Of a DNA stretch of 64,000 nucleotides, positions 10,079 to 35,197 are shown piece after piece. This stretch comes from Amphiscolops sp. MND2022 (taxonomy: Eukaryota): the NCBI GenBank assembly GCA_964187785.1, contig CAXLNC010000509.1:434001-498000 (forward strand), written 5' to 3'. The notes beneath the pieces are model-generated. The model did not search any database. It was not told where the DNA came from and was given only the letters and a program-made list of their open reading frames with translations. Each line of letters opens with the position of its first letter. Position 1 is the first letter of the stretch. The position numbers and the translations under genes were made by a program.

Positions 10079-10079
10079 A

Positions 10080-10527: not shown

Positions 10528-10531
10528 ATAG

Positions 10532-10859
10532 TAAAGTACTTGGTTGTTATCGTTATTAAATGTTAAGAGAGAATTAGGTCTTTTGTCTGAAGTACGATTA
10601 GTACTTTAAGCGACGCTAACAGAGCTGCAGTTATTAGGTCTTTGGTTGAAGACAACTAATCGATTCAATTAAAGTTGTGTTCTACAAATCAGAATTCATG
10701 GTATTGAATTTGAGTAGTTACATCAATCAATTCATTTTACATATAGAATATTAATCGAGTACATTCATAAATGAGGTGCACTGTTCTAAAGTCTAGACAT
10801 ATAGGGGGCGGAGGATAATTATAAATCATGAAATATTTGGTATATCATCTGGTATATCA
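10532..10859 (-). repeat. 3' LTR of element B
   Basis: Direct repeat of 31136-31470 with ~19 differences by eye (~5-6%), including a 6-bp indel. Confidence 0.95.
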
Positions 10860-12150
10860 TCCGACCGGGTTTTGAAAAGAAAAAAATTTTAAATTTGGGG
10901 TTGACTTTAAAATTTATTGGTGGAAATTTTGGAATTGGAGGTTTGATTCAAACTGTCGGAAGTTGGTTCAATACGTAGGAAGAGAAAGAATAATAAAAGT
11001 TTGGCAGTTTCTGATATAAAACTTTATGCAAGAGAAAGAGAGGAAAAAATTTATAGGAATTTTTTGTTTTGCTTATGTTAATAGAAAGTTGTCTTCGTTT
11101 CTTTCCTTTCGTGAGTTACGGGCAGTATCGGATCTTAGAATGAATGAGAAAAAGTTTTATAAAGTAGTTAAATAGATTCGTTTAATTAGTAGGCCAGAGG
11201 ATGTGTTTTGAAATTACAAAGGAGAAATTTTGGAATTTTTGAGGTTGATTGGCATTTTCATAATGGTGATGAGTTTAGTATTTTAATGTTTTCGAGGTCA
11301 ATGAAATTTTCATATAGTATCTATTTTGAGTTTCTTTCGAGGCGGTAAAAGATTTGAGTGCCAGGGAGAAACTTGTAAAAATTGAAAGATAGGCAAGAAA
11401 GGGCAGTCTGATTGACAAAGAAGTTCAGAGTGAAAGACCAAGATTCTTAGTTGTGTGGTAACTAAGCATTTATCTTGTTAGTCTTTTGAACAACTAAAAT
11501 GGAATGGCGGAACTTCAAAGCAAGATGACGACGTGATCAAATCAAATTTGGAAGCCAAAACAAATCCATATGAGTCAACATGTGTTCAAAATTATATCAT
11601 GTGGCAGGTTAATTTTCAATTGAGAAAAGGCAAAGCAAATTTTGGGCACGCAGATTTATTTGCGAAATTAGCAAGAGACGAAGAGTTAGATGTTAAGGTG
11701 AGTGAGTTTTAATATGTGATTCGGTAAGAGTAAGAAGAAAAAGGAAAGGGTGTTAGAACTGAAGTTATAGAGAAGCAAAGTGAAAATTTTTGGGGGAAAG
11801 GTTTAAAAAAATGGAATTTTGTTTGAAAAAATGTCTATTAAAGTGGAAGAAAGGTGAAAAAAAATGTAGCTCCACAATTTAGGAGAAATTGGGGCGAGAG
11901 CAACATGTTAAATTGGACGTTGTAAAGTTTTGTCAGTTAGAACCGAAGTTAAAAGCGAATTGTTTGGCGTTAGGGGGGAAAATTTAAAACAAAATGTAAA
12001 AAGGAAGGGTTCAGCATAAAAGTTGATGGTTGGGGGGTTAAAAGCAATATAGGGAGGGGGTGAGATTGTGGTACTGAAAACATAAAAGCATAGACAGTTT
12101 TGAATAAAATGTACAAAAATATGTAGGGGAAAACGATCATACGAAATATT

Positions 12151-15100: not shown

Positions 15101-15434
15101 GGACAGCGGAATATTGTTGAAGATTGGGAGAAGTGGCGACTGCATCTTTGGGGTGAAGAGAAGGAGTGGGGTTGGTCATCGAAACTGGAGATTGAAGAGA
15201 AGAAGAAAGCACTGGAAGAGTAGTTGAAGCAGTTGTTGTCAAGAGAGAAGAAATGGGTGGCAATTGAACAGTAGAGGTTGAAGAAACAAGTGATGCCACA
15301 GACAGAGGGGAAGAAGTATCAGTGGATGAAAGAGCGAACGTCGAAGAAGTAGAAGTGACGGAGAATGGCAGAAAGGAGTCGAGGGGTTGATTATGAAGAG
15401 GATATGCCAGAGTGGAAGGAGGATAAGATGACAT
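12151..15434 (-). pseudogene. Accessory ORF Y of element B, interrupted by the 2.4-kb insert
   Basis: MSSYPPST...DAVATSPNLQQYSAVRQLTNDLQRKKPRHPRRPQLP...RRLVHTAVYKQK...HNCSNNNY | insert | ...IEPITPSSQ...DLDNLVTSLNDVE*. Confidence 0.78.
12354..14777. mobile_element. Unclassified 2.4-kb insertion, probably a non-autonomous DNA-transposon-like sequence
   Basis: Absent from the element A alignment and lacks the purine skew of the flanks. ATAATT duplicated at 12348-12353 and 14778-14783. Imperfect inverted termini TA|CTCTCTATGGCA (12369) and TGCCATAGAGTG|TA (14547-14560). Confidence 0.6.
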
Positions 15435-16145
15435 TACTGAAACAAAATTATGGTTGAGTTATTTTGTATTAATTTTATATATTAATTTTATATAATTCGG
15501 AGCAATTTAATATAGATACAGAGAATGTTGTGATGGAATTTATTGATGTCGGAGAAGAAAAAATATGAGTTGAAAATTGGAAAATTGAAATTCGTTAAAG
15601 TAGTGTGTTCTAGAGATGTTGAAGGAACAAGTGAAAATAGAGAAATTAAAGAAGAGAAAATACTTTTAGAGATAATAGAGTTATGAAAAATTAGGATTAG
15701 GTTGTCAAAACTCATGAAAGAAGAACAAGTGAAAATGTCAAGTGAATAGATCTAAGAACAAAAGGAACTTATAGGAAGAAGTGTCAAGAGAAAAGGGAAA
15801 ATGAATGATATATGTTAATTAGGAGTGAAAAAAATAATTGTGTAAGAAGTCAATGAAAGATAAGATTTAGGAAATGGAAAGAGTTGTTATCAAAGGAATT
15901 GAAATGAGTTCAGGTATGATTGATGAGAGATTTGAAAAGAGATAGACAAGAAGTCTGTGAGAGAGGAAAAGATTCTTAAAAAAGGAGAAAAAATTTCAAA
16001 GTATTGGTATTTATATTTGAAGGTGTGATCGGGAGTAATTACCGAAGTAACTGAAGGCAGGTGAAATTGGTCAGAAATTGGATTGAAAAGAAATAGTGGT
16101 TAGAAATTTGATTTAAAGAAAATTTACCAATAGGAGAGAAGAAAT

Positions 16146-17640
16146 TTAAGATGAAGTGAATTGAGGAGGAGTTTCAAGTAAAACAAGTTTTTTAAGCAAG
16201 TCGTTAACACGTATTGTAGAGAGTGTTAAATTTTGAATATCTGTTGAATGAAGTTGAAGTAAGGATTGGAGATTACGGAATGTGTCAAAAATATGGTTTA
16301 TTAAAACAAAAGGATCGGTATTAGGAGCAATTTCAACATGAGGACGGAGTAGAGTAAGAATTTCTGACACGAATTTGTCAGTAGGGCAGGAGAAAGAATT
16401 GATACAAACGTTAGGATTTGCAGTTTGGAGAACATAAGAAGTAGATGGAGGAGGAATTGTTGAAGGAGGAGCCTGAGAAGGTTCAGGTACATTATTAGGA
16501 GGAGTATGTTTAGGAAGAGACTGGAAAATTTCATCTGAGACATTTAAAGAGAAGTAATTGATTTGTTTTTTTCAAAATGAATGAGGAGAATTTTGCAATA
16601 ATGAAATTGAGTTGGGCGAGAGAATAATGTTTGTGAATTAGAGCTGTATATAGAGAGCGGTAATGATCATCAAGAGCTGCTTCCACTAATTTGTTCATTT
16701 TCGGAAGGAAATTGGGAACGGCATTAGGGATGTGGGTTGGAAGAAGAAAATCATCATTAACATTAAGAGCTTCTTGAGGAACGAATAATGGACGAGAAGG
16801 GTCATGGTATGACGATAGAATGAAATATTGTTTAACAGGGTCATAATTACGAAATGTTCCGATTGTGAAGAGATGGTTTAAGGAAGAGTGAGAGTGGTAT
16901 GAAACTGGAGAAGTAAATTTGTGATTTTGAAAAATGAAATTTTGAGGGTGTTTTTGTTCGAGAAAGAGTTGATAAGTCTCATGGTGAAGTTTTTTAACAG
17001 AAGGAGTTGTGGTTATATCGTTAGGACTAGTATTTAGATCGTGGTGAGTCGGTTTAAGAAAATTAAATTTAAATTGAAAGAAACGAATACGATTATTCTG
17101 CCAAAAAGCGAGTTGTGGTAAGTTTTTGGAAGCATACGCAACATAGTGGTCAAAATTACGATCTTGAGGGAAGCGAAGTAGGGGTCATATATAATGAAGG
17201 GAGATTAGCTTTAAAGTTCGGATGGGTACGGAGGAAGTCATTTGTCATGGTATTGGATTGAGAAGGAGTTTTTATTGGATGAAGAGTAGGCGGTAAGATA
17301 CCAGAATCAATGAAGACAGGATCTTCAAGAATATTATATTTCTTTTTAGGAGGAATTGGATGATTATCGATAGTAATATGAAGATTATTTGGAGGCGGAG
17401 TAGTAGAGTGACGAGTTTTAAGATTAGTAGAGGGTGGTTTAGTGAGAGACTGAGAAGTAGTAGAATTTCCATTTACAGTAGGTTCTGGAGTATTGTTAGT
17501 ATCAAGAGGAAGTGAATCATTGATTGACGAATGACATATCAAGAGTACCAGATTTAAGAGAAAGCGGGGGCGACAAGGAAGCGATGCTTGACAGAAGTTC
17601 TTCCTCTGGATTTATAGTTACCGTTTTGGATTTAGAAAGA
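16146..17640 (-). pseudogene. Accessory ORF X of element B (~490 aa if frameshifts are repaired, unknown function)
   Basis: Long, mostly open frames: EELLSSIASLSPP..., ORF 17156-17542, ...TFRNYDPVKQYFILSSYHDPSRPLFVPQEAL...LVEAALDDHYRSLY..., ...SEILTLLRPHVEIAP...LETPPQFTSS*. Confidence 0.55.
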
Positions 17641-17954
17641 AGAGGAAGGAAAGGTGGGAAGATGTTTAGTATAAATAAACAACTAAGAAAATGATGGTGG
17701 TACAAGTGTGCGTGGTGTGGGTAATAGAAAAGATTATAAATGTAAGTAAGATTTTCGTGAAAAGTTCAAGACAAATGATTTTGAGAAAGTAAGGAGAAGT
17801 GACCAAAAGAGAAGCGAGAATGATGACAAATGAAATGGGAAGTAATTTAAGATAACAGTAATTAGTATGTAAAGGAGGTAAAATAATAATATTCAAAATC
17901 AATTCGTTGGGGATTAAGTTAGGGTATTAATATGCAGGATAGAAAATGATGGAA

Positions 17955-20725
17955 TTAAAAGTTGATAGATTGTTCAGGAGGAAAAGGGCAAGAAGAATAA
18001 ACTTTGACAGGACTGTCAGATGGGTCAAAAATATTATTGACAGAAGTTAACGGGATGTCATTAGTTTTAATTGGCGGCGGAGTAGGGGGTTAAAATTTAG
18101 TAGATTGTCAGAGGTTATGTATGGGGGAATCATTGGACGAATTATCACAATTGGTGTCATCAGGAGGAGGAGAATTATGCAAATATATGGGAGAAGATAA
18201 TGAAGATTTTTGGGGAGGTCGAGGAGAAAGATTATTATGAGGGAGAAGGTGAGAATTAAATTTTTGGAGGTGGGGGTGAAAAATCTTCGGTGTTAGAGGA
18301 TTGTGATGATCAATGGGAAGAGAATGAAGAACAGAAGAAGAAAGAGGTTTGATTGGGGAAGAATTAGGCGAAGATCTTTGCATTGGGGTTTTATTTTTTA
18401 AATTAAGGAGTTTTGTTTTGGTGTTAGTATGATACTTAGGAGGACGAGGTTTGGGACTAGAAGAAATAGTGTGAGTTTTCGCTAATGGGGAATGGGGTGA
18501 ATCTGAATCGTCAGATTTTGATTGTGAATTAGATGATTTAATCTTAGCGGTCATCATGGTTTGGGTAAGAGTTCCAAAGAGACCAAATCCTAAGGCAGTT
18601 ATAACAGAAAATTGTTTTTTAAGCAAATTTCGAACAGTGAATGAACGATAAATACTAAAGAGTGTGTTGAAAGCGAATTGTAAGAAAAGAGCGGTAGAGA
18701 AAAAGATTCCACATTGGGTTAAAATATACCATGGATAGCCAAAAGTTTTATGAAAGCATCGGTAAACCAGTCAGGAGAGAAGAATGGGGTTAGTTTAACA
18801 TGTAGTCGTGAAGACCATTTCGGAGTGATCGGTAAAGATTATCTGGAAAAGAACTGGCAGATTGTTGAATCATAAATTCATAGCTAATACCTTTTCCAAG
18901 GAGTTGAAGAGTAATGTCAGAATGTTTAGTGAATAAACTCGGCTCCAAAAATGTTTTAGTTCCTTTTGAGAATAAATGCCAGCATCTTGAGCAGTGAAGG
19001 TATTAGGACTAATAGCAGTTTGGATTTGGGTTGGTTCAAAAAGGAGAGGGGGATCTTTTTTTATAGGTTGAGGAGTTAAAACATAGTATTGATCGGTATC
19101 TTGGTCAAGAGAAATAACATTTTGAGAATTATTTACACAAGGAATTTGATTGGCATATTCGAAAGTTTGACGTGTAATAGGGTCGACATACATAACAGTG
19201 TCAAGATAATTGACAGAAATTTTGTCATAGCATTGATCAGCAATGTATAAAGGTGAAAGATGATGAGGACAATCATATAACCAGGCAGTAGAGCCTTCAA
19301 CATATAAAAAGTTACTACGGTTTTGGGTTAAGAGGAAACCAACAAGTTGTGGATTTTTAACAGACATGGCGAGGATTGTTAAAAATTGGGTTCGTTCGAC
19401 TTCACATATAGTATGAAGAGTATTAAGTTCAGCAACGGACATGCTTTTAATGACATGATTTATAGAATAGTCAATTTTAGTGTTAATATGAGCTTCGTAA
19501 TCAATGGTGGCAAAATTATTTGAAGAGTTTAGAGCAGGGAAAAGAATTTTGTTTTGGGTATGAATTAATTCTCCAGATATTAACGGGGTAGTAAGTTGAT
19601 TGTATTGTTCATTTTGTGGAAGTTGAAGAGGATTAGGTTTACTAGTATGCATATTAAAACCTTCTTTATATGTTATGAAAAGATCAGGATATTGAGTAAG
19701 ATGTGAAGGAGTGGGTTTATTACAAAACATTTTATTTTCAGGGTAAATTTCAAAACGAGAGAGGCGGGTTTGAGACTTGGTATCGTGATAAGGAGTATCT
19801 GTTGGAATAGTAGAGGAGTGATTATTGAAAAAGTGTTCAGTTTCAAGCCAATAACGGTTTTTGAGCTTAGACTTTCTACCAATAAAGGAAGTAATGGAAA
19901 AGATCAAACAAAGTTCTTCAGGGAACCAAACAATGGTGAATGGTGTTAATATAGTTGGCTTACAAAAACCATCATCGTGGAGACAAGGTAAAGTATGTCC
20001 ATGGTAAATTAGTTTTTTGTCTTTATCATCGTAAGTAATTTCAATTTCTTTTACGATAAGAGACCAGCTATCTTTTCCGATAATGTATTCATAGCGATCC
20101 CAACAAACAGCTTTTTCTCTTAGAGTTGAGTTTAATACTAATTGTGAATTGGCGATCCAAGCAAAAGCACCATAATGAAAGGTATTTAGTTTAGTAATAC
20201 GAAAGGGGGGTTGTTTTGTTTCTAAAAGGCGTTGTTTTTCAATATCATCGAAGAATGTAAAGGAATTGGAGTAATTAAAAGCGTCTAGTTGAGGGTTGTT
20301 AGTTCCGTTCAAATGGCGGATAGCATGTTTGCATTCTGTAGGATCGAGAGTACTGGAAGATTGGGACGTTCCATAGTATTTTGGCGATAATCAGTACGAT
20401 CATGACGACGATATTTGTAATCCGATTGGGCACAGACAAATTTTCCACGTTTTACATAAGCTTCACAGGTCCAAGCTTTAAGACGTTTAGCTTTAGCGCG
20501 AACGAAAACATTGACAATAGCACGGGTACTTTCGAAAGCAGATGGAGCTTGAGCGCATGGTTGGACTCGAGTAAGACTGAACTGTCTTAAATTATGTTGT
20601 TTAAAACAATCGTAGTGAGAGACTAAAAGGTCCGAAATATGATCAGAGGAGGAAGCAATTTGAGAAAAGACTAAGAAAAGGGTAGAAAGAAAATAGAAGA
20701 GCGAGTGAAAAAAGAGGAAATGCAT
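17955..20725 (-). pseudogene. env: env (class III fusion glycoprotein-like) of element B: signal peptide, Cys-rich ectodomain, TM, long tail
   Basis: ORFs 20309-20725, 18870-20312 and 18108-18626 joined by frameshifts. N-terminal signal-like MHFLFFHSLFYFLSTLFLVFSQIAS. Repaired TM region FGYPWYILTQCGIFFSTALFLQFAFNTLFSIY...VITALGFGLFGTLTQ. Confidence 0.88.
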
Positions 20726-20763
20726 TTTAAAAGTGGGCAGTATTTTTCAAAAAGGTGAGGGTA

Positions 20764-22049
20764 TTAAGAAATGTAATGGAGCCGTGTAAAAGACCGAAAA
20801 GGGGGATGGTCGCTGACGAAGAGACTAAGATTTGTAGCAATAAAAGGGTGAGGAAGAGATTTAAAATTAACTGTTGTATGTGAAGGAATGGGGTGAGGAC
20901 TTAAGTTATGAAATTTTACGGTAATTTCAAATTTAAGTTCTAAATTCGTGTCTTCAAGGCGAAGAAATTCTTTACGGCGACGTACATTTGAAAGATGGGG
21001 ATTAGAATTAAGTTTATGGGTGGCAAAGTAAAGAAAGCGAGGATCTTGGTGGGGGCTACTGACAAGAGTGTTGTTTACGATTAAAGGGTAATCAACACGA
21101 TTAGGTGTAGGAGGAGTAGAGTATTGATCAGTAGTAAGATCAATGTTAAGTAAATGACTATCAGATAAAAGAATAGTGGATTTTTGAGAGGTGGGACGAG
21201 AGAAAAGGTGACCAGATTGATTATAAGAAGAAATAGAAGAACGTTGAGAAAAATTAGTGTCAATTCCCGAAGTTGGAGAGTTTTCCGCTTTAGAGAGAGA
21301 GTCCGAAGAAAGAGATTGAGCGTGGTGGCGTAGAAGAGAAGAGTTAGTTCTTGCGAGAGAAGGAGAATGACGACGATTATTGCGAAGATTATATCTATGA
21401 CGAAGCCAAGGGTGAAGAGTAGATTCGGAAATAGTGTCAAGAAGGTTATCCAAAGAAGAAGTTGTATATTTAGAGGCGGAATTTGAATGAGGAAGACGAG
21501 GATAAAGAAGAGAGCAAGTAGTTGAATCGATTTCGCTTAAATCGGACTTCATCTGACGAGAATCAAGAGATTCAAGTGCATGGATTTTGAGAGGTTTAGG
21601 TGGGGGAAGTGAAGGTTGAGAGGCGATATGAGAACAAGTTGGAGGTATTGAAAGAGAATTATCTGAGAGCGTCTGCGAAAAAATTTTATGGAGGTATGTA
21701 TAAGTTTTGGTTTAGGAAGAGTTGGATTATTAATATTTCGAAGGAGAATAGGGTTAATATCACTAGGATCAGGGATATGAAAAGAAGAAGGAGGTGGAGA
21801 ATGGGTAGGGGTTATATTGAAAGGGGAGTCAGTATTGGAAAGTGGGAGAGTTAAAGATGTTTGAGTTTGTTGAGGAATAGTAGTTTTAAGAGGAGTGTGA
21901 GTTGGAGTTTTAACAGGGGTGGTATCTAAAGAGGGGGTGATTGGTATGGGGTCCAGGGGAGGTTGTTGAGGAGTTGGTAAAAAACTTTGTGATGAAGGTA
22001 GAGTATCACTTGAAATAGAAGAAGAGGGTTGAGAAGAAGAATCAGACAA
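20764..22049 (-). pseudogene. Accessory ORF W between pol and env (Ser/Pro/Thr-rich, ~430 aa with one frameshift)
   Basis: ORFs 21549-22049 and 20764-21552. The frame of the second stays open upstream to a T-run near 21680, consistent with one gene broken by a homopolymer indel. Confidence 0.6.
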
Positions 22050-22354
22050 GAATACAGTAAGATCCAGGATGGAAACAAAATGGAGATATATTAAAGACTT
22101 CTATTAAGTATGAAAAGATGAACAAAGATTGATATTGGAAAGGAGCAAAAATGTAAATGGAAAATCGTGAAGAGAGATTTGAGAAAAATACTAATTCTGT
22201 TTTGATGAAATCAAGTTTTGATGAGAGCAACAGTTCAGCTAGATTTCACTACAGTAAAGTGAAGAAAGGTATATAAGATACAGGTACTGATTAGATTGTC
22301 ATGTGTCAGACTTTAATAGAAGTCAAGGACAATACGTAAAAGTAGGAAAGCCAT

Positions 22355-24254
22355 TTAAAAAAATGAATATTTAATCAAGGGGGAGGTCGATGTTTGGTTT
22401 GGATGAATTATAATGTCGAGGAGGGAGTGAACGTAGATTATATGGGGAAAGAGGAGCTCGTTTATAAGTGGATTCATTTTGAGAGTTAGGTGATGGAGAG
22501 GAGGAAATATCAGGAGAATCAGCAACACGAGGGAAGAACTGAGGAAAGGAATCATTTGAGGAGTTTGAATAATAAATGGGGTTTGGAAGCATTTCAAAGT
22601 CAGAGTCGTGAGAATCAATTGTATTATCAAGGTTATCTTGAGAAGAAGAATGCGAAGGGTTGTGGTAGATAGGAGTAGAGGTGGGAAAATTATCTAATTT
22701 CTCTTGTAAGGAAAAATAATGTGAAAAACTTTGATATCTAGGAATAGGAGTGGTAGAATTATTGAATTGTTTAATTTTTGAGGATGTAGAGGTTTGAGAA
22801 TGATTTGAATTGTGTTGTAAATCTAATGAGGAAAATTGAGAAAAGGTATCTTGGTAAGATTCAGTATCGGGGTTTTTAATAAGAGAAAGTGTAGAATGGT
22901 AGTGTTTAATATATGGAAAAATTATAGGTTCTTTGGGATAATATAGTAGAATATGATTTCGATGGGTTTGAACTGTAGAACCATCTTGAGACAGGGGTTC
23001 ATGCGTTACTTCAGAGAGATGGTTAAGTATTTTATGGGCCAATTCGGAGAGGTTTGAGCTTTTTTGAAAAATTAACAGGTTTAAAATTCGTACGGATGAC
23101 AAAAGTATTAAGAGGTAATTGTTTTAAATGAGTTGTTTCGAATGTAGAACTTTGAGAATTGAGTTTATGATTTAAATGGCGGTGGACAGTTGAATATATT
23201 TCCAACATTGCAACTTCAGCCGCTAAAAAACCATGGGGAGATAGGTTTATCAAGGAGTGAGTGGAGGAAGGGATTAAGGTCTTGAGTGCTATAATGTGAA
23301 TGAGGGGGAAGAGACTCACAATAAGTTGCGATACAATTTTTTGAAGCATCACGAGATAGGTTAAGAGAAAAGGTAAGAGGTATACGAGGATGGGTTTGGA
23401 AAACAATCTGATAAGGGGAAAGTTTAAGTTGAGGAAGAGGTGTTGTATTATGGGCATATGCGAACATTTGAGTTTGAACTGACCAGTTAGTAGAAGGATT
23501 TTGTAAAAATTTTTGGAGATGAGTTCTAAGATTTCGGTTTTGAACTTCCACTAAACCGTTTGTCCATGGCGAGTAAGGAGTTCGAGGTGAGTGATTAGTC
23601 TGGAAAAGAGAACATAGATGAGCCATATCTTGATTGATATTCAGTACCTCGGTCTGTAACTAGGTATTGAGGGGGACCAAACTTTGTGATCCAGTGATGG
23701 AGGAGGGTTTGAATTGCTTATTTGGAAGTAATATGAGGAACAGGGTTAGTAACAACAGAGTGACTAAATGCGTCAATAATTAAAAAAATATAGGAGTTGT
23801 TTTGAGATGATGGAGCAATAGGGCCTTTAGTGTCCATGGAGATCCGGTAGTTGAAGTGAGTAGCACTCTCGTAAAAAGGAAGGGGAGGAGAAATGTTTTG
23901 GGGTTTAATAGGGAAATGTTTATTAGTTTGACATTCAATGCAGTCATGGATGAAAATAGAGAACCATGAAGGTAAATGAGGGACAAAATAAAATTGGTTA
24001 AATGTCTTAATAGAGAGTTTTTCACCTGAATGACCATGATAATGTGTTTTACTAAATGCAGCATAAAAGAGTTTAAATGGTAAACATATACGTGTATGGT
24101 TAAAAGAGGGTTGAGTTTTAATAAAGATTTCTTCAAAAAATCGAGAGTTAGGTGTATTATACTGAATAAGATGAGAGTTTGGATCAATATATAAATGTTG
24201 GAATTGTCTATAATATGTATATAAAAAGGAGTTTGCTTTAATACCTGGAGTCAA
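22355..24254 (-). pseudogene. Integrase of element B with GPY/F-like module and long low-complexity tail
   Basis: HYHGH...CIEC zinc finger, RISMDTKGP, IIDAFS, SPWTNGLVEVQN (catalytic E), KKLKPLRIGP. Frameshifted. Confidence 0.92.
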
Positions 24255-24694
24255 GGAAGAAGGTCTTTGTTTTTGTTTTAACCATTAATATACTGAAGAA
24301 AGGACAGGATCATCCTTTTGAGCTTGAAGTAGAATGGGTAATGTCAAAAAGGTGTCGGAAGAGAGGAAGAAATTATCAAATGCTTTACAGTGAGCAAAGA
24401 AGGAAGGGTCAAAAAATGGTAAAGATTGAGTATGTATAGGCTTTGGAGAAGTTGGGGTTATAGCATTACTGTCAATAGTATTATTAACAAGAGAGGGGAA
24501 GTTGGTAAAGTTGGTTAAGATATCTTGAGACAAGTTAATATCGTTGAAATAATGGTGTTGTATTTCAGTAAAAAGGGTGTGAAGTTCATGAGGTGGTTGC
24601 GAATAATGATGAGGAATTCGTTTAAGAACGGAATCGCCTGTGTCATATAAATCAATTCATTAAAAGAGGATTTTCTTGGAGTAAAGTTTTAACT

Positions 24695-25370
24695 TTATTT
24701 TTGACAGGTTTTTTTGTATTTATTTAGGAATGAGGAAACAGATTGAAAAGAAAAGGAATCAAGAGGAGTATATTTAACGATATTGCCTTTATCTTGGATA
24801 CGGAGTGTGAATTGATCATCAGCATAGTCAGCTAAGATTAAGTGTGAATCATTTTTTTGTGTAGGGAGTACATCTTCAAGTTTTATTAGATAGTGATTGG
24901 GTTTTAAACTATTATTGTTTTTGAGTTGAAGGAAATCGATATGTGGAGGGAGAGTTTTGTGTTGGAGTTGGCATGTTTTAGTATTAATAGTTGAAAAATC
25001 TCTACTAAGCATATCAGCAACAGTAAGGTTTGTACCAGCTGTGTGAATTATTTGTAGGTTTGGAAATTTGGTTAATAGCATTTGAGCTTTATATTGTCTA
25101 GGAGTTAGGTTTCCTTTACGAGTGAAAAGGAAAAGAATAGGATTGTGATCTGTAAAAATAGTTATCGGGAATTTGGAGCCAATTATAATAAATTCGTATT
25201 GGGAAAGGGCAAAGGTAATAGCACAAAATTCTCTATCATAGGTAGAAAGTTTTTGTTCTTGGGTTGTTAAAATACGAGAATTATGAAAAATCATTTGCAT
25301 TTTGTTTTTGGAGTTAGGTTGAAATAAAACTGCACCTAGGCCTATTAAAGAGGCATCTACAGTTATTTAA
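24695..25370 (-). pseudogene. RNase H of element B
   Basis: TVDASLIGLGAVLFQ...YDREFCAITFAL...IFTDHNPILFL. Confidence 0.92.
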
Positions 25371-26400
25371 AATGGATGAGTAGTATTTGGGATAGCGAGT
25401 CCTGCATCTTTAGAAAGAGAAAGTTTGATTTGATTGAAAAGTTTATCTAAATCAGGAGTCCATTCAAATAGAATATCATCGCGGAGAAGAGTGTAAAAGG
25501 GTTTCAAGGAAATGTGTAGTTTGTTGATGAATTTGGAGTAAAAGTTCATTGATCCAATAAAGCGCAATATTTCTGTTTTAGAAGTGGGTGTCTTTAATTG
25601 GTGGATATCATCAACTTTAGAAGAGATGGGTTTGATTGTATTATTACCAATTTCATGTCCAAGAAATTTGACGGTGAGGAGGATATAGAAAGTTTTTTCA
25701 GGAGCAATTTTAAGATTATTTGTTTGACAAACTTGGTAAAGTTGTTCAATTAACTTTAACAAGTGAGGTTTTGTATGTGCAAGAAGGAGAATGTCATCTA
25801 TATAAACTAATGCAAAACCTTGGTCAAGTTTTTGAAAAAACGAATACATTTGTTTAGTAAAAAAATTGGGTAGGCCTTTAAGACCATAAAATCCACGAAT
25901 GAAAGCGTAAAGTTTGTCACCAGAAGAGAAACTAGTTAAGGCTATAGTTTCTTCATCTAAGGGAGCGTGAGCGTAAGCATACATGAGGCCAATGGCGGAT
26001 ATGAATTTTTTGTTGGCACGTGCAAGTTGGGGAGCTAAATGTTCAATAGGCCAGGATTCGAAAGATTGATCGGTATTTGAGTTAAGGTGTCGTGCGTCTA
26101 AAACGACTTTAATAGTATCTCCTTTGGGTATAATAATAAGGGGGTTTAAAATTGTGGTGACATAAAGGGATTTGTCAGAATGAGTGGAACCAATTTGGCG
26201 AATAATATTGTGTTTTTCTAATTCATCGAGGAGTGTTTTTAATTTTTCTCTATAATGGATAGGAACTTTTGTAGGTCGTTGGGTTCGAAGTTTGGCATTG
26301 GGTTTAAGACGGATTCTAAAAGGAGTAGCTATTTGACCAACATCGTTTTTATGTGTTGAATAGCAGGTTCGATATTTAACAAGAATGGAGCAGAGTTGTA
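25367..26400 (-). pseudogene. Reverse transcriptase of element B
   Basis: VVLDARHLNS...AIGLMYAY (the first catalytic Asp reads Gly here, Asp in A)...GFYGLKGLPNFF...LVYIDDILLL...VKFLGHEI. Confidence 0.95.
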
Positions 26401-27043
26401 AGTATTCTTCGTCAGTGACATCAGAGTACTGGAATTTAAATTTATTGAGGAATTGTTGAGTGTCTGGTTAATATTGTAATGGTGGAAGAGGTCAGGTTAA
26501 AATTTGAGATGGTTGCAAATTGTTTATTTCATTTTGAGGGTTGCGAAGAGAAGAACGTCGACGGGGAGGTTTTGGTTCCGAAAGGTCAGGATAATAAGAA
26601 TTGAAATACGGTGTGTATTAAGGAGTTTACATCATTAACTTTATAGTGAGTTGGTTGAACAGTAGGGGCTGGAACCTCAATGTATCCAATATATCCAGGG
26701 GCAATGACAGAATGGTGGGTAATGTTTTGAATAATAACAGAACAACTTGAAGGTTCGGTATTAATGTTCTGGTAGATTTGGAGAAAATCAAAGGTTGAGT
26801 TGAAGCGTGTATTAAAAAATGGATGAGGTGTGGAAGGGAAAAAGACTTCATTATCAGAAGTTTTAAACGTTAAAGGAAGTGTTGGTTGAAATGGGAAATG
26901 GATAATTTGAGAAGCGTTGGGTTTAAATTAGAGCTTATTTTTAACATCGATAGTGTAGATGTAAGAAAAATATGGATAATCTTTTTCTTTATGAGCTGTA
27001 AAAGGGAGGGTGTTAATGCGAGATTCATGTGGAGTATTAAATG

Positions 27044-27499
27044 TCAGTGACATACTTTCAATATTAAGAGTTTTTTTACATATTTTTCAAAAAAGGGAGT
27101 TCCAAGATTATTGTATTTAATATTTGCTACTGCAAAAGGAATAACAAGGGTACGAGTATTTCCATGAAGGGAGGTATGAAGTGTAAGTATTAGATTTTGG
27201 AGAATAGGTACTTCGGATTTATTGGCAACGGTTAAAGTTTTGTTTTCGTTTTGATGTGGGGAATGTTTTGAGCATTTTAAAAAGTGATCGGCTAAAATGG
27301 TGAAAATGGGTAAGTTTAAAACACAAATGGAGGCTCCACTATCAAGTAAGAACAAAAGTTCTAATTTAGAAGGGATAGAGATATCCTCACTCGGTTTGAA
27401 AATGTATAAATTAACAAACCAAGTGGAAGGGGTAATAGCATTGGCATGTTCAGTAGAAGTTGACGAAGGCTGGGATAATGAAGGGTTAGGGTGATACAT
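27044..27499 (-). pseudogene. Aspartic protease of element B
   Basis: LFLLDSGASICVL and a downstream NNLG motif. Homologous to A ORF 9263-10078. Confidence 0.92.
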
Positions 27500-30080
27500 G
27501 TTTATTTCAAAATTAGCTTCTGTATTGGAGTTGCTTTGAAGAGGTGGTGTAGATGGATGTGTAAGAATTATGGATGGTTTGTATTGGGATTGAGAATGAT
27601 TGTTTGAATTTGAATGAGATCTACTACGTTAACGATCATTGCGTGGTTTGGAAGGATGACGATGAGGAGAATTGTATCTATTAAAAGAAGAAAAATTTGA
27701 GGAACGTTCACGAGAACGAGGGTAATATTTAGATGGACTACGAAAGGAATTAGAGTTATAATATGTTCGTGAAGAAGTGTATGATTTGTAGGGATTTTGA
27801 TTTTAATGTTTATCATATCGAGATCTATCACGATGGTGGTAAGACGGGGGTGATAAGAAAATGTACGGGGTGGGTTATTATTATATCTAGGACGTGAATG
27901 CGAACTTGAATAAGAACGAGATTGATACCGAGTTTCGCGAGAATATCTGCGGGAAGGGTTACTGTGGCTTCGACTACGGTAGCGAGGATAATGAGATTTA
28001 TTTGGAAGGGCTTTTAAAATGTTGATAAAAGGTAAGAGTCGGAGATCTAGATTGTGGTTTTGATTCTTTGAGCATATTAAGTCGGCGAAAGCAAGTTGAA
28101 ACAGAGTGGTTATTTTTATGGCAAAAGGAACAATATTTCTTGAATTGGGGTTTCGATTTATTGTTAGGATCCATTACTTGAACTTGTGGAGATTCGGAAG
28201 GAGGATCTTGAATGGTTGTACTTTGTTGAAAAGTATTAGACAGAGTGTTAATTTCAAGGGAAAGTTCTTGAGTTTTAATTTTTTTAAACATTAGACATTT
28301 AGACATTTAGACATTTTCATTATCCTTTTTAACAGGGGCAAGAGCTTCAATTTGAGCATGATATGCGTGTTTTTGAGAAACGAATTGCTTCTTAAAAATT
28401 TGGTGAAAAGATGACCAATCATCTTTATAAACTTGTGGGAGACGATCATACCAATTGGAAGCAGTTCCAGTGAGGGAACAATAAAGGAGAGACATTCGAC
28501 GAGAATGCCAAGTTAGATATGATTGAATATCTACAGGTTGAGGTCCAAGTTGAAATGTCACTCGAGTACTAAGATGTGCTAAGAATTTTTCAGGAGGATA
28601 AGTTTGGTCAAGGCCATCAAAGAGTTTAATAGGATCTGATAGAGCAGCAAAAGGGACAGAAGGAGTGGTTGGAAAATGAAGAGATGAATAGAGAGAAGAA
28701 GAATTGAAAGGTAATGTTGAAGTAGGAGGAATAGGATGAGGGGGGTTTGGAGGGGGTTGGAGAGAATAAGTGGGGAAGTTTTGAAAAGTAGGATAGAGAG
28801 AAACATAAGGGTTGTACGAGATGGATTGGGTAGTAGAAGAAGCAGTTTGAGAAATAGAAGGAATTGGTCGTAGGGAATAAGAAGAAAAGGGATTTTGATT
28901 AAATAAAGAAGGATCATGGGTGGAAGAAGGTGGGGGGGCTTTGAGGGAGGGAGTGAGTGGAAAGAGTATTATTTAAAGAAAGAGGAATGGGGGGTACTGT
29001 GGGGATTTGGAAAACCGAAGGTTGAACAGTATTATAAGGAACGGCAGGTGGAGTATTAGAAGGTGTAGTATACTGGCTCGGAGAGTGAGAAGTAGGAAGG
29101 TTTTCATTAATTGTGGTGACTTGAGAAGTAGAAGTGGAAATGTGTTGATTTATCGATGGGGTAGGGTTTACTACAGCATTTGAAGATGAGTGTGAATAGA
29201 AACATTGGAAATTGTATCAGTTGAAGGTGGTAAATAGTGTTGTTGGTTGTAAGGACGAACAGGAGGAGGAAGGTTCAGACTTTTATCAAGACTGTTGGAG
29301 TCATAGGCAAGGTATTTACAATGAGAAGAAGGAAAATCAAGAAGATTATAATACTGAGGGTGTTGATTATCAGGAGTATCGAGAAAAGGTGAAAGTTCAT
29401 TTTGAGTAAACTGTTGAGGAAAATTTATACAGGCATCTTGGAATTTCGAGTGCCAAACGAGTTGGTAATTATGTCGAAAGAATTTTCGAAGGAAAAGAGA
29501 GTATAGTTAAATTTGTTCTTTTGTTTTTGTATTGAGGGTAAGATTCTGAAAGAATTGGTATTGAAAATGATGAATTTGAAGAATATCGGTGGTAAGCCAC
29601 TGGTGGGGACTGTCTTCAATAGTGCGAAATTGTTCAAAATTGGGAAGGTCAAAAAGAGAGGTTCTTTTTGGAGAAGGTCTTGTATGGAAGAAGGGTTAAA
29701 AACATGTTTAGGTAAAAGATTATTTTTTTCTTGAGAAAGGTTGTAAAGACATTAGCATTAGGGATATAGATATCGTTAGGATAAATATTTTTTCGAAAGG
29801 TATCAGAGCGAGTTGTGAGAGAAGTAAAGGGAATAGAAAATGGGGGTTCTTCAAAATTTGCAACAAGAAAATGGGTGTCAATATAGTATAAATAAGAGTC
29901 ATGATGTTCACGAATAAGAGAGGTTGTATAAAAATCTTCCGGGTAGGTTTCAAAAGAAAGAGGGGTAGTGGAGTTGTAAATAAGATTGTTAGGAAATTGA
30001 GTGAGAGTTTGTGAAATATCACGGGTAACACGGTGAGAGGTATTGAAAAGAAAGGGAAGGGGTTGTATGGGATCAGTCAT
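27500..30080 (-). pseudogene. gag: gag of element B (unusually long; internal ~225-bp deletion at ~28300)
   Basis: N-terminal domain MTDPIQPL...ETYPEDFY..IREHHDSYLYYIDTH, a P/S/T-rich spacer, capsid-like SLTGTASNWYDRLP...WSSF..IFKKQF, CCHC knuckle CSFCHKNNHSVSTC, RS-rich tail. Confidence 0.9.
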
Positions 30081-30311
30081 TAGGAGTGTCTATGGGGATT
30101 GTAATATAGACAAATCCAATCCATAATAACTTCAGGATGGACCGATGGTTCAGTAGGGAGGGGAAAAACGATGAATTTTTTGACGAAAGTAGGTATAAAA
30201 TGAGAAGAGAGACGGATGAAAATATATAGGTGTACTGATAAGAAGAAGTGAAAAGAAAAATAGTTGCTGAAGGGCAAGGCAAGGATTGGGGTGAAGGAAG
30301 AGGAGGTTCAT
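30080..30311 (-). CDS. Small upstream ORF 3 of element B (frameshifted N-half; stop overlaps the gag ATG)
   Basis: C-terminus PTEPSVHPEVIMDWICLYYNPHRHS* vs A PTEPSIHPDIILDRIWLYFYPHRHS*, with many synonymous third-position changes. The N-terminal assignment (MNLLFLHP vs MYLIFFHS) is less sure. Confidence 0.65.
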
Positions 30312-30431
30312 ACAAAAAGGAAGGGGAAAAAGAAAAGAGAGTGGTAAAAGTATAGATAAAGATAATAAATTAGGTATGAAGATAAAAGGAATAAGGGAGA
30401 AGGAAATGGGGAAATTTAAGAAGAAAGGGAG

Positions 30432-30545
30432 TTAGTGGAAGAGAGATTCGACAATTTTTTCAATGAGGAGCATTAAGAAAACTAGCATTGCAAAAATGTA
30501 TGAAACGAAAAGAATAATGGTGGCAAGGTTTTCGGTAAGAAACAT
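30432..30545 (-). CDS. Small upstream ORF 2 of element B, 37-aa single-TM peptide
   Basis: MFLTENLATIILFVSYIFAMLVFLMLLIEKIVESLFH*. Same length and near-identical in A (34190-34303). Confidence 0.75.
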   Translation of the reverse strand: MFLTENLATIILFVSYIFAMLVFLMLLIEKIVESLFH

Positions 30546-30563
30546 AAATGAAAAAAGCAGGGA

Positions 30564-30701
30564 TTATGCTCTATATTGTTCAATAACATGATGAAGGAAA
30601 GGGAGAATAAATTTATCAACAAGAAGAAGGACAATGGCACAAAGACCAAAAAGGTAGAGGAGGATTAGACAAATACGAACGGAGTCATTAAGGGAAGGCA
30701 T
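30564..30701 (-). CDS. Small upstream ORF 1 of element B, 45-aa single-TM peptide
   Basis: MPSLNDSVRICLILLYLFGLCAIVLLLVDKFILPFLHHVIEQYRA*. Homologue in A at 34314-34442. Confidence 0.75.
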   Translation of the reverse strand: MPSLNDSVRICLILLYLFGLCAIVLLLVDKFILPFLHHVIEQYRA

Positions 30702-30799
30702 GAAAAATTTGGTAGGAAGTAGAAATGGGAAGGAATTTCAAATAGGAAATTTTATGATAGAAATGTGGGAGGTAAAAAAGAACATGAAAAAAAGGTGTA

Positions 30800-31060
30800 G
30801 CAGGGAAAAGTGAAATCACGCCAAAGGGGATTAGGACAGAAGAAGAAAGTGTACCAGCGCGTAGCTGAATCACGAAAGGTGATTAGGACAAAAGAGGATG
30901 TTGTACCAGCAAAAAGCTGAATCACTTGGAAATGATTAGTACAGAAAAGATATGGTGTGCCGACTACTAGGTCGAACCACGTGATGTGATTAGTACAGAA
31001 GAAGATCTGAGTTGTGTACCGACAATGAGTCGAATCACTGTGTGTGATTAGTTCAGAAAG
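30800..31060 (-). repeat. Leader array of ~5 structured ~50-56-nt repeats (element B)
   Basis: Recurring GTAC-CAGC/CGAC-loop-GCTG/GTCG-AATCAC-loop-GTGATTAGTACAG on the + strand. Confidence 0.85.
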
Positions 31061-31120
31061 TTTGTTTGGTATGGAAAGGGAAAATGAGTACAAAAGTGTT
31101 TAGAAAAAGGAAAGAAAAGA

Positions 31121-31133
31121 GGTGGTCGCACCA
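31121..31133 (-). promoter_or_regulatory. Primer binding site of element B (TGGTGCGACCACC)
   Basis: TGG start 2 nt downstream of the 5' LTR. The primer tRNA is not identified; the first 7 nt would fit a tRNA ending CGCACCA, such as Gly. Confidence 0.8.
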
Positions 31134-31135
31134 GT

Positions 31136-31470
31136 TAAAGTACATGGTTGTTATCGTTATTAAATGTTAAGAGAGAATTAGATCTTTTGTCTGAATTACG
31201 ATTAGTACTTTAAAAGATGCTAACAGAGCTGCAGTTATTAGGTCTTTGGGTGAAGACAACTAATCGATGAAGATTCAATTCAAGTTATGTTCTACAAATC
31301 AGAATTCATGGTATTGAATATAAAGTAGTTACATCAATCAATTCCTTTTACATCTAGAATATTAATCGAGTACATTCATAAATGAGGTGCACTGTTCTAA
31401 AGTCTAGACATATAGGGGGCGGGGGATAATTATAAATCATAAAATATTTGGTATATCATCTGGTATATCG
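31136..31470 (-). repeat. 5' LTR of element B
   Basis: Direct repeat of 10532-10859. The outer terminal base differs (G instead of A on the + strand). Confidence 0.95.
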
Positions 31471-31474
31471 ATAG

Positions 31475-33825
31475 GGGTTACTGTTACTTTGACTACGGTA
31501 ACGAGGATATTGAGGGCAATGTTTAGCGGAGTGTGTTTTAAAATGTTGATAAAAAGAAGGAGTTGGTGATTTAGATTGTGGTTTAGACTCTTTGAGCATA
31601 TTAAGTCTACGAAAGCAAATGGAAACAGAGTGATTGTTTTTGTGGCAAAAGGAACAATCTTTTTTAAATTGGGGTTTGGATTTATTGATAGGATCGATTG
31701 CTTGAACCGGAGGAGTATCTTGAATAGTTGCATTTTGTTGAAAGGTGTTTGAAAGAGTGTTAATTTCAAGAGAAAGTTCTTGAGTTTTGATTTTTTCAAG
31801 TGTAATATCTTCAGAATTAACCATATTAACAAGAGAGTGAAAAGGAATAGAATGTTCCATGGAACTGGAAATGTGTTTAACTTGGCGTTTATTAGCAAAA
31901 GCTTTTAATTTTTTTGGGAGACCACGGGTGAAAATTTCATTACATTTGAGATTAATAGTGGATGGATATTCGTTATACCGGCCTTGTTTAACTAGAGTTT
32001 AAACTTTCAAAGCGTAGTGGCGAACATTTTCATTATCCTTTTCAACAAGGGAAAGATCTTCAATTTGAGCATGGTAAGCGTGTTTTTGAGAATAGAATTT
32101 TCCTTAAAATTTGGAGAAAAACAGATGACCAATCATTTTTTATACTTGTGGGAGACGGTCATACCCAATAGAGGCAGTTCCTGTTAAAGAACAATGAAGG
32201 AGTGACATACGTCGAGAATGCCAGGTTAGGTATGATTGAATATCAAGAGGTTGAGGACCGAGTTGAAATGTTACACGGGCACTGAGGTGGGCTAGAAGTT
32301 TTTCGGGGGGATAAGTATGATCTAAGGCATCAAAAAGTTTAATAGGGTCAGAGAGAGCAGTAAAAGGAACATCTGGAAAACTGGAGGAAGCCGAAAAGGA
32401 GGAGGGTTAATGGGGAATGCAGAAGTTGATGGTGGGAGAGGGTTAGGAGGAAGATTAGGTGGTTGAAAAGAGATAGAGGGATAGCTTTGAAAACCAGGAT
32501 GAAGTGAAGCATTTGGGTTATATGAGGTAGGTGGAGGGTTAGAGACAGAAGATTGGGAAGTAAAGAGATGGTGCGGCATAGGTAAAGATGAAGGAGTGTT
32601 AGGATTTATTAGTGAGGGATTTGGAGGAAAATAGGTTTGAGTAGTGTGGGATTGAGGTTATGGTAAAGTGGTAAAGTGGTTATGGTAGTGTTGGAAGAAA
32701 GAGGAATTGGAGGTAGTGTTGGGATTTGAAAAACGGGGGGTTGTGTAAGATTAGCGGTTCTCATAGAGGGGGTACTAGAAGGAGTAGTGCATTGGTTTGG
32801 TGTTGGAGAAGTGGATGGTTGAGTAGTTATTATGTTGGTTTGGGATGTAGGCGGATCTAAATTTGGATCAACAAGAGAGTGTGCATTAACTACTGCATTA
32901 GAGGTGGATGGATATACACGAGTTTGTATAGGGACATTGGAAGTAGTATCAGTGAAGGAGGGTTTTGTTTTGCATAAGAACGAATGGGTGGTGGAAGAAT
33001 ACGACTTTTGTTAATACTATTATTGTCATAAGTGAGGTAGGGAAAATGAGTCGGAGGAACTTCAAAAAGATTATGAAATTGAGGGTGTTGATTTTCAGTG
33101 GTATCGAGAAAGGGTAGAAGTTCATCTTGAGTGAACAGTGAGGGGAAGTTGACTGATTTGAACTTTGGAGTGCCAGACAAGTTGGTATTTATGTCTAAAT
33201 AATTTTCGAAGGAAAAAAAGAGAGTATACTTGACTTTGTTCTTTTGCACTTGTACTAAGAGTAAGGTTTTGAAAGAATTGATATTGAAAGTGGTGATTTT
33301 GAAGAATATCTGTGGTCAGCCAGTGATGAGGGTTATTTTCAATAGTGCGAAATTGTTCAACATTAGGAAGGTCAAAAAGAGATGCTTTTTGAAGGAAGGT
33401 TTGTATTGAGGATGGGTTAAAATATGTTTAAGTAGGAGGTTATTCTTTTCTAAAAGATTATTGAGAAAAGTGGTGAATACATGAGCAGTTGGAATGTAGA
33501 TGTTATTGGGATGAATGTTTTTTCTGAAAGTATTAGAAGAGTTTATGTGTGAAGTGAAAAGAATAGAAAATAGGGGTTAACCAGGAGTTTCAACAACAGA
33601 GTGTGTGTCAATGTAGTATAAGTAAGAGTCGTGATGTTCACGAATGAGGGGTATAGTATAAATATCTTCCGGGTAGGTTTCAAAAGAAAGAGGAACAAAA
33701 GAGTTGTAGATAAGATTGCGAAGAAATTTGGGGATTGTATTTGAGAGTTCACGTGTAATACGATAGTGGGTGGTGTCAAATGCAAAGGGGAGAGGGAAGA
33801 GAGGAGAAGGAAGAGGGTCAGACAT
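31475..33825 (-). pseudogene. gag: gag of element A, 5' part
   Basis: MSDPLPSP...ETYPEDIY..IREHHDSYLYYIDTH, a capsid-like region (32000-32330), and CSFCHKNNHSVSIC in ORF 31456-31860. Confidence 0.9.
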
Positions 33826-34060
33826 TATGAGTGGCGGTGAGGATAAAAGTATAACCAAATACGGTCTAAGATGATATCGGGATGAATGGAAGGTTCAGTG
33901 GGCAATGGTTTAAGATAGTGGTGGATATTGAATAGGAGATCGTGAAAACAAAAATAGAGAGAAGAATAAAAAACGAGGAGAAAAAAGAATAGAAGGAATG
34001 AAGGATAAAAATGTTAAACAGAGGTAGGAAAGGAGTAGAGTGGAAGAAAATTAAATACAT
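33825..34060 (-). pseudogene. Small upstream ORF 3 of element A (frameshifted; TAATG overlap with gag)
   Basis: ...PTEPSIHPDIILDRIWLYFYPHRHS TAA-TG. Confidence 0.62.
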
Positions 34061-34189
34061 GCAGAAGAGAATGAAAGAAGATGGGAATGAAAATTTTAGA
34101 GTGGTGGTGAAAAAGGTGATACTGTTAAAACAAGGGAAAACAAGAGGTGTTGAAGAAGAGAAATGGGGGAGAAAAGAGGGAACAGGAAG

Positions 34190-34303
34190 TTATGAAAAAA
34201 GGAATGCTACTATTTTCTCAACTAGTAACATTAGGAAAACGAGCATTGCAAAAATTTATGAAACAAAAAGGATGGTAGTTGCAAGATTTTCGGTAAGAAA
34301 CAT
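34190..34303 (-). pseudogene. Small upstream ORF 2 of element A (TAC to TAA at codon 16)
   Basis: MFLTENLATTILFVS*IFAMLVFLMLLVEKIVAFLFS*. Confidence 0.72.
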
Positions 34304-34313
34304 GATGAAAGTG

Positions 34314-34442
34314 TTAGTTACTAGTATCTCGAGGGAGGAAATCAATGATGAAGTTGTCGACAAGAAGAAAAATGATTGAAAAGAGGCCAAAAAGATACAA
34401 TAAGATAAGACAAATACAAACAGAATCATTGAGAGAAGGCAT
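34314..34442 (-). CDS. Small upstream ORF 1 of element A, 42-aa single-TM peptide
   Basis: MPSLNDSVCICLILLYLFGLFSIIFLLVDNFIIDFLPRDTSN*. Confidence 0.75.
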   Translation of the reverse strand: MPSLNDSVCICLILLYLFGLFSIIFLLVDNFIIDFLPRDTSN

Positions 34443-34495
34443 GGAAAGATAGAAAAGAAAGGAAAGAACAAAATTGGTTGAGCAACAGAAATGAT

Positions 34496-34498
<3 letters not shown>

Positions 34499-34526
<28 letters not shown>
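34499..34526. repeat. (TA)14 microsatellite
   Basis: Directly visible; absent from the equivalent B leader. Confidence 0.95.
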
Positions 34527-34532
<6 letters not shown>

Positions 34533-34560
34533 TTGTTAGCAGTTTGGAAAAGAAGAAAAG

Positions 34561-34830
34561 GTGTATCAGCACTTGGCTGCATCACTTTGGAGGGTAATTA
34601 GTACAGAAAGTTGAACTGTTACAGCACTGGGCTGAATCACTTTGAAGTGTGATTAGTACAGAAAAGAGAAGTACCAACACGTAGCTGAATTAGAGATGTG
34701 ATTAGCACAGAAGGTGAGGATTAAGTTGTACCGACAACTAGGTCGAATCACATGAAATTGTGATTAGTACAGAAGAAATGTTGTACCGACAAATAATGGA
34801 ATCCTTTGGGTGTGATTAGTACAGAAGGAT
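34561..34830 (-). repeat. Leader array of ~5 structured repeats (element A)
   Basis: Same unit as B 30800-31060 (GTGATTAGTACAGAA core). Confidence 0.85.
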
Positions 34831-34860
34831 TTGTGAAAGGGAGGAAAGAGTTGATGAAAT

Positions 34861-34870
34861 GATCGCACCA
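34861..34870 (-). promoter_or_regulatory. Primer binding site of element A (TGGTGCGATC)
   Basis: 2 nt from the 5' LTR; shares TGGTGCGA with B. Confidence 0.8.
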
Positions 34871-34872
34871 GT

Positions 34873-35197
34873 TAAAGTACTTGTTTTTTGTTGGTAGATA
34901 CGGAATCTTACTTAAAGAGACGAGGGACTTAGTACTTTAAGAGACACAGAGACACTAACAGAGCTGCAGATATTAGGTCTTGAAAAGGGAAGACAACTGA
35001 GCGATGAAGAATCTATTGAGAGTTGTATTCGAGATATAAATCAAAATTGGTTTACAGTATTAAATATAAAATGGGTACATGATGCATTGTGAACATAGAT
35101 TAGGTACATTGGTTAATTATGTATTGTTCAGTAATCAAAATGGGTCTAGATATTCATCAAGGAGGTGTGGGTAATTATTCATTTTGTAGGTATACCA
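34873..35197 (-). repeat. 5' LTR of element A
   Basis: Direct repeat of 672-995. Confidence 0.95.

Follow-up and report, generated by a model that had tools for sequence, protein, structure and literature searches.

The window, by which we mean the whole stretch of 64,000 nucleotides that was analysed, contains two nested LTR elements on the minus strand within bases 669-35197, element B being inserted in the gag of element A (Table 1). Pfam models of Gag, RT, RNase H and integrase matched in the window, as did that of a Monjiviricetes fusion glycoprotein, and the LTRs, the PBS, gag and then RT, RNase H and integrase follow one another in the order of an env-carrying Ty3/gypsy element. The match of Env to PF24664 had an E value of 2e-18 in the window and 3.5e-25 in a related family (family 3, below), and a PDB sequence search with Env gave 0 matches. 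Two young relatives were found elsewhere in the 1.07-Gb host genome, which its Wnt genes mark as that of an animal, with LTR identities of 99.7% and 100%. Their 18.8-kb layout consists of the LTR, PBS, repeats, three small ORFs of 45, 37 and 78 aa (sORF1 to sORF3, all intact), gag-pol, env, two longer ORFs (495 and 305 aa) and the second LTR. Judged by its sequence, element B is of this 18.8-kb Ty3/gypsy type with a class III-type Env.

Table 1. Positions of the features of elements A and B in the window
Feature	Positions	Strand	Remarks
Outer element A	669..35197	-	LTRs 34870-35197 and 669-995, 91% identical to each other; B splits its gag
5' LTR of B	31136..31469	-	93% identical to the 3' LTR
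PBS-like TGG motif of B	31125..31133	-	abuts the LTR
Five ~55-nt repeats of B, predicted double hairpins	30790..31060	-	between PBS and sORF1; z -3.1
sORF1 of B	30564..30701	-	45 aa; predicted helix ~aa 8-28, then Asp-Lys
sORF2 of B	30432..30545	-	37 aa, 114 nt; predicted helix ~aa 7-28, then Glu-Lys
sORF3 of B	30078..30311	-	78 aa in intact copies; window copy frameshifted, stops after 53 aa
TAATG	30078..30082	-	gag ATG (30080) overlapped by the stop codon of intact sORF3
gag-pol of B (Gag, protease-like motif, RT, RNase H, integrase)	22371..30080	-	many frameshifts
env-like gene of B	17969..20746	-	Pfam PF24664 Monjiviricetes_fusion; disrupted in the window copy
Two more 3' ORFs of B	14634..17611	-	lengths in young copies 495 and 305 aa; nothing in Pfam
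3' LTR of B	10532..10858	-	
sORF1 of A	34314..34442	-	42 aa
sORF2 of A	34190..34303	-	114 nt; stop at codon 16
Disrupted sORF3 of A	33823..34060	-	reaches the gag ATG of A (33825)

The repeats between the PBS and sORF1, each with two small predicted hairpins, are a candidate packaging or dimerisation signal. The two ORFs after env are open in both young copies (L065:5733-7217 and 7865-8779), and family 3 has a single ORF of 435 aa at this place.

An earlier note on this DNA had described two tiny membrane peptides in the leader, and both were found at the positions it gave, on the minus strand, in the leader of an LTR element that also carries env. The existence of sORF1 was confirmed, but its quoted length of 31 aa was not, as it reads 45 aa. 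The gap between sORF1 and sORF2 (18 nt in B, 10 nt in A) and the equal length of sORF2 in both elements, with the premature stop of the A copy, agreed with the description. The same was true of the synonymous excess between B and A. The codons of sORF2 differ by 14 synonymous and 5 non-synonymous changes and 1 stop, and the nucleotide identity by codon position is 0.89/0.89/0.54, whereas the flanks have diverged to 57-65% identity. For sORF1, 16 of the differing codons are synonymous and 14 non-synonymous, with positional identities of 0.76/0.83/0.45. Start codons are kept as claimed, the ATG being present in 50/52 copies of sORF1 and 51/52 copies of sORF2, and the stop of sORF2 in 49/52. The cores are also more hydrophobic than the T-rich strand would give, since equally hydrophobic open frames appeared after base shuffling only once in 1249 (sORF1) and once in 958 (sORF2); the helices themselves are called by hydropathy alone (KD19 3.0-3.2).

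Copies of the region were collected by two genome DNA searches. Each scored 40 candidates, out of 333 in one and 370 in the other, and from each the 30 best were retrieved. Removal of 8 near-identical duplicates from these 60 loci left 52 copies for analysis. Since similarity to the ORF region guided their choice, the copies are a biased sample; the gag-only search of other families removed this bias. The dN/dS values were estimated by our own two-class codon model on a fixed nucleotide tree, with gaps and stops treated as missing data. On internal branches, dN/dS was 0.245 for sORF1 (p=8e-12), 0.054 for sORF2 (p=2e-27), 0.269 for sORF3 and 0.229 for Gag-N (p between 8e-12 and 1.5e-28 for all four ORFs), and the flanking spacers showed 0.81 and 1.16, both not significant. 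Terminal branches within the ORFs gave 0.45-0.97 and the remaining forward frames 1.2-4.0, and the low values of one reverse frame (0.16-0.48) are the expected shadow of the real frame. When the leader was scanned in 25-codon windows, strong constraint was confined to the three ORFs. Both halves of the tree carried the selection signal, with the exception of the N-terminal half of sORF3 in the clade of the window copy.

The variants common to at least 4 copies were distributed over codon positions 1/2/3 as 20/10/43 in sORF1, 7/6/33 in sORF2, 69/33/94 in sORF3 and 60/59/120 in Gag-N, and as 43/35/45 and 51/59/54 in the spacers. In this multi-copy codon alignment, substitutions were thus biased to synonymous sites. 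The most constrained ORF in the region is sORF2, in which 31/37 sites had no amino-acid change common to at least 4 copies, against 29 shared synonymous variants. It had no shared indel; there were 2 shared frameshifts in sORF1 (3 copies each), 3 shared indels in sORF3, and 14 and 24 in the spacers. The ORFs were open at full length in 27 (sORF1), 36 (sORF2) and 15 (sORF3) of the 52 copies. It could be argued that only the nucleotides of a T-rich leader are conserved and that the hydrophobic frames are accidental, because pyrimidines abound on this strand, in which long hydrophobic off-frames occur often. We find this barely credible in view of the third-position bias in the shared variants of sORF2 relative to the first spacer, the frame-specific dN/dS, the shuffle test and the cross-family homology reported below; the internal-branch and frame-specific dN/dS largely refute it. 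As far as sequence can tell, sORF1 and sORF2 are genes of predicted single-pass membrane peptides that are selected at the protein level.

The idea of membrane-peptide genes under protein selection therefore stood, but not their number of two, as the cassette comprises three ORFs, the third starting at 30311. This sORF3 has a hydrophobic N-terminal half, a Lys-Ile-His-Arg motif, a Pro-rich stretch and a Trp-rich tail, and its helix, with a dN/dS of 0.60, is far looser than that of sORF2. At its junction with gag, TAA was kept in 45/52 copies and the gag ATG in 47/52. A frameshift at one slippage-prone tract was found in 19/52 copies, 18 of them in the clade of the window copy. Its copies are scattered over the tree, as would be expected of recurrent slippage or assembly error. 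Alternatively, the need for sORF3 may have been lost in this clade, in which the constraint on the N-terminal half was not significant (dN/dS 0.68, p=0.25). Atlas gave nothing usable for sORF3 and the Gag N-domain.

Homologs of gag-pol (~47-49% identity) led to three further families in the same genome, with thousands of candidate matches. Their Gag-N is 34-39% identical to that of family 1, to which B belongs, and the RT of family 3 is 67% identical. A related peptide of 37-40 aa was found upstream of gag in the three further families, thus in four families in all. The loci of family 3 were retrieved with the gag query alone, and a 37-aa peptide stood directly before gag in 30/30 young loci and was full-length in 14/20 mostly older ones, with a dN/dS of 0.007 (p=2e-6). 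This family also has a conserved soluble leader ORF of 57 aa (L099:1161-1331, plus strand; dN/dS 0.38, p=0.04), which is unrelated to the membrane peptides. The make-up of the cassette thus varies between families, and with one membrane peptide and this soluble ORF in family 3, a fixed sORF1-sORF2 pair cannot be universal. In family 2, the dN/dS of a 77-aa ORF was 0.12 (p=8e-8), and a 40-aa ORF taken alone gave 0.46, which was not significant (p=0.13). Family 2b had ORFs of 39 and 78 aa in 14/14 loci. No alignment was obtained between sORF3 and the 77-aa ORF of family 2, and the two are analogous by position only. Families 2b and 3 have a single gag-pol ORF of ~2650-2700 aa in elements of 18-20 kb. 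Env was present in families 1, 2 and 3, the three examined, and Gag starts without Gly2 and hence without a myristoylation site.

On the other hand, in six unrelated gypsy families, represented by one copy each, whose RT is 24-28% identical, the peptide profile matched nothing; three of these six have 3' ORFs of unknown kind. As other env-like gypsy families of the genome lack the peptides, enveloped elements do not need them in general. The family of P0075 had no match at useful identity in the genome. Two other gypsy families share a non-membrane ORF of 131-132 aa upstream of gag with CxxC and a His pattern (L204:2498-2893 and L205:2409-2801, plus strand). After pol, L203 and L205 have mutually related 3' ORFs with signal-peptide-like starts, possibly a second type of env in this genome.

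The short peptides align nearly without gaps. They begin with a cap that is polar or acidic, run on through ~22 hydrophobic residues to Asp/Glu-Lys/Arg and finish in a short tail of amphipathic character; the acidic residue closing the helix is invariant. By sequence comparison, the peptide of family 3 is a homolog of sORF2, with 29-31% identity, a score reached by 0/2000 shuffles under three nulls (p<0.0005) and an hhalign value of 74%. The sORF1 and sORF2 peptides are probable paralogs (shuffle p 0.002-0.012, profile comparison 86%). The comparison of sORF1 with the family-2 peptide gave 94% by profile, with the signal in the flanks (core-shuffle p=0.66), and that with family 3 was marginal in shuffle tests; no shuffle null was beaten for sORF2 against family 2 or for family 2 against family 3. 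Across families, the peptides are 29-49% identical, whereas nucleotide identity at positions 1 and 3 is only 0.3-0.6. Pfam had nothing above cut-off for 9 small peptides, and a PDB sequence search with the peptide profile gave 0 matches. Against 5.8 billion proteins, the profile obtained 7 matches among 242 candidates, all from ENA and all resembling the families of this genome. The Gag N-domain profile obtained 525 matches, of which the best 120 were all from ENA and at least 60% identical to these families. No related loci were found in metagenome and viral contigs.

The earlier note knew of no such cassette upstream of gag, which cannot be maintained. The MDG1/412 elements of Drosophila, described as env-less, carry a pair of sORFs upstream of gag, and the second of the pair, sORF2, is a FAST-like membrane protein (10.1101/2025.03.14.642691; 10.1101/2020.09.24.311225). 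As in these Ty3/gypsy elements, the small ORFs here lie between LTR and gag, have low dN/dS, encode at least one transmembrane helix and belong to the full-length RNA. In MDG1/412, sORF1 is described as nuclear and ~110 aa long, and sORF2 has 63-107 aa, an ectodomain of ~30 aa, often myristoylation, and a polybasic stretch (10.1101/2025.03.14.642691). The elements here differ in their peptides of 37-45 aa with N-termini of 5-7 residues, in having up to three membrane ORFs and in the presence of Env.

The shared place upstream of gag raises the question of whether the peptides could be FAST-like cell-cell fusogens, and the ORFs of 77-78 aa would be the best candidates. The length of sORF3 (78 aa) falls within the FAST range of 60-210 aa, and its hydrophobic stretch is followed by 2-3 basic residues and a Pro/aromatic tail. 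The lengths of sORF1 (45 aa) and sORF2 (37 aa) are below this range, and their N-termini of 5-7 aa, with the helix placed by hydropathy only, are shorter than a FAST ectodomain of 10-50 aa, by the limits of the same source (10.1101/2025.03.14.642691). Within 15 aa after the helix, where FAST proteins have at least 3 K/R, sORF1 and sORF2 have 1 and sORF3 has 2-3, depending on where the helix ends; the family-3 homolog has 3 after the helix, with 2 acidic residues to offset them. In the four families, none of the peptides starts with Met-Gly, so the MGxxxS/T motif is absent from every one of them, as it is from 2/6 fly sORF2. Moreover, the element already carries a fusion-type Env. We consider a fusogen very improbable.

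The gB-type env-carrying gypsy elements are reported to be widespread in animals (PMC13524379). Our elements resemble these 'ancient' errantiviruses in the LTR-gag-pol-env order in an animal, the class III-type Env (PF24664) and the recent multi-copy expansion, and differ in their size of 18-20 kb, the single gag-pol ORF of families 2b and 3, the leader miniproteins and the extra 3' ORFs. The main text of that report gave no match to 'small ORF' or 'upstream of gag', and the available text on the Oikopleura Tor elements notes no small upstream ORFs (PMC4402516). Nackednaviruses, which are reverse-transcribing, also have two small ORFs, smORF1 and smORF2, upstream of the capsid gene; they are described as non-enveloped, with a FAST-like smORF2 of 75-114 aa (10.1101/2025.03.14.642691). 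A description of the present cassette was not found in the literature searched, with most subscription papers and Repbase outside that search. Small ORFs upstream of gag as such are known, and the selected membrane-miniprotein cassette beside Env is a variation on that arrangement.

In family 1, position -3 of each of the three ATGs is occupied by a pyrimidine. ATGs were depleted in the leader in 4/5 stretches (p 0.002-0.12), the exception being the stretch with the family-1 LTR. Together with the TAATG, these features suggest that the cassette is likely translated off the genomic RNA, keeping pace with Gag. Leaky scanning on the full-length RNA, followed by stop-start reinitiation at TAATG into gag, would yield the peptides along with Gag. 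Reinitiation at UAAUG is known from caliciviruses, influenza B and SART1 (PMC10275272), and the overlap is a feature of the TURBS type. A TURBS also has an upstream motif complementary to the h26 loop of the 18S rRNA; its UGGGA core was not seen by eye in the 100 nt before the overlap in a single intact copy, and the loop of the host 18S differs. With this precedent and the weak ATG contexts, the ORFs might be cis-acting uORFs that set the output of Gag by leaky scanning and reinitiation, the peptide sequence having a minor or nascent-only role. The core not seen may speak against this, and the idea leaves the dN/dS of 0.05, the transmembrane pattern and the cross-family identity of the peptides unexplained; as the function of the ORFs it is quite improbable. 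As a route of expression, it is compatible with an adaptor role of the peptides.

A helix that ends 9-17 residues before the stop cannot exit the ribosome before termination. The helices here end at this distance, which argues against RNA tethering through the nascent chain and for post-translational insertion. The peptides of 37-45 residues would thus be inserted after translation, with the N-terminus out. The unchanged sites of sORF2, tighter than the helix of sORF3, suggest sequence-specific helix packing and not a plain anchor. With Env present and Gag lacking Gly2, an assembly or release adaptor is the best reading. We tentatively propose that the peptides are sequence-specific transmembrane adaptors in the assembly or release of enveloped particles. 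The near-invariant helix of sORF2 would have a specific helix to pack on, its paralog sORF1 and the Env anchor being the likeliest partners, and the packed helix would connect the budding membrane with Gag, in which a myristoylation site is lacking.

To our knowledge, the Gag of Ty3/gypsy elements that carry env has no recognised matrix anchor, and the joining of capsid and envelope is an open point. A conserved tiny membrane peptide in recently active families is a concrete candidate for this link. It is conceivable, and we put it forward with caution, that the peptides form a new family of viral membrane miniproteins of 37-45 aa, duplicated and kept lineage-wide, which acts together with a class III Env as an adaptor, either matrix-like or for budding. 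If true, an LTR retrotransposon would be equipped with accessory membrane proteins like those of a complex enveloped virus, polycistronic ahead of gag. Searches filtered on at least 60 aa, on myristoylation or on gag-pol-env alone would miss such a class of accessory genes in the endogenous viruses of invertebrates.

The HIV-1 Vpu is a tiny single-helix viral protein acting via helix-helix contact, and the likeness of our peptides to it is an analogy only, without a Pfam or PDB match. Bovine papillomavirus E5, a tiny single-helix protein of 44 aa that is described as acting by helix-helix contact, is similar in size and layout, again by analogy only (PMC4547410). In a host-directed role of this type, the helix would bind a conserved membrane protein of the host, such as a restriction factor, receptor or pump, and disarm it, or would block superinfection. 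The invariant acidic residue at the end of the helix favours such a role, and the very low dN/dS would suit a slowly evolving partner. However, a host-virus arms race is expected to produce positive selection, and no signal of it was found; co-translation with Gag equally suits a structural role. We regard direction against the host as unlikely.

Another possibility is that the peptides homo-oligomerise to ion channels aiding release, as viroporins do. They are short and single-helix, and Thr, Ser and Tyr lie within the helix of sORF2. Small transmembrane, viroporin-like ORFs are described as common beside the G-type fusogen in rhabdoviruses, the virus kind that names this Env family, and they share the UAAUG stop-start (PMC4334499). 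These follow G and have a highly basic C-terminus, whereas our peptides precede gag and lack such a C-terminus. The tails of sORF1 and sORF2 are near neutral, with one Lys by the acidic residue, unlike the highly basic C-terminal domain by which class IA viroporins are defined (PMC4334499), and Pfam and PDB gave no viroporin match. A four-copy complex prediction of sORF2 scored 0.04 and gave no answer. Taken together, we judge viroporins rather improbable and keep the adaptor as the preferred reading.

Some minor observations were made in the course of the analysis. The 37-aa membrane ORF of family 3 is in frame with gag, with one stop and one codon between them (L098:1384-1503, plus strand), and its readthrough would yield a membrane-anchored Gag. 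The N-terminal domain of Gag, of 280 aa (L057:2117-2956, plus strand), is kept in all four families and has no known relative; its residues 108-217 are predicted to form a helical bundle. The models of this domain were of low confidence (pLDDT 48 and 57), and no clear relative emerged from fold searches with them (best Z 6.2, Foldseek E 0.065).

The nested elements A and B lie at the edge of a satellite array with units of 231-233 bp and higher-order repeats of 468 bp, which occupies 35200-64000, ~12350-14780 and 1-650 of the window, and a non-element stretch splits B near its 3' end. Elsewhere in the genome (G000), matches recur at spacings of 20.1 kb and 18.4 kb as tandem whole elements, and a 1.3-kb unit with sORF1 and sORF2 is tandemly amplified, the places listed being C7:8.98-9.04 Mb, C11:5.59-5.62 Mb and C5:18.878-18.885 Mb.
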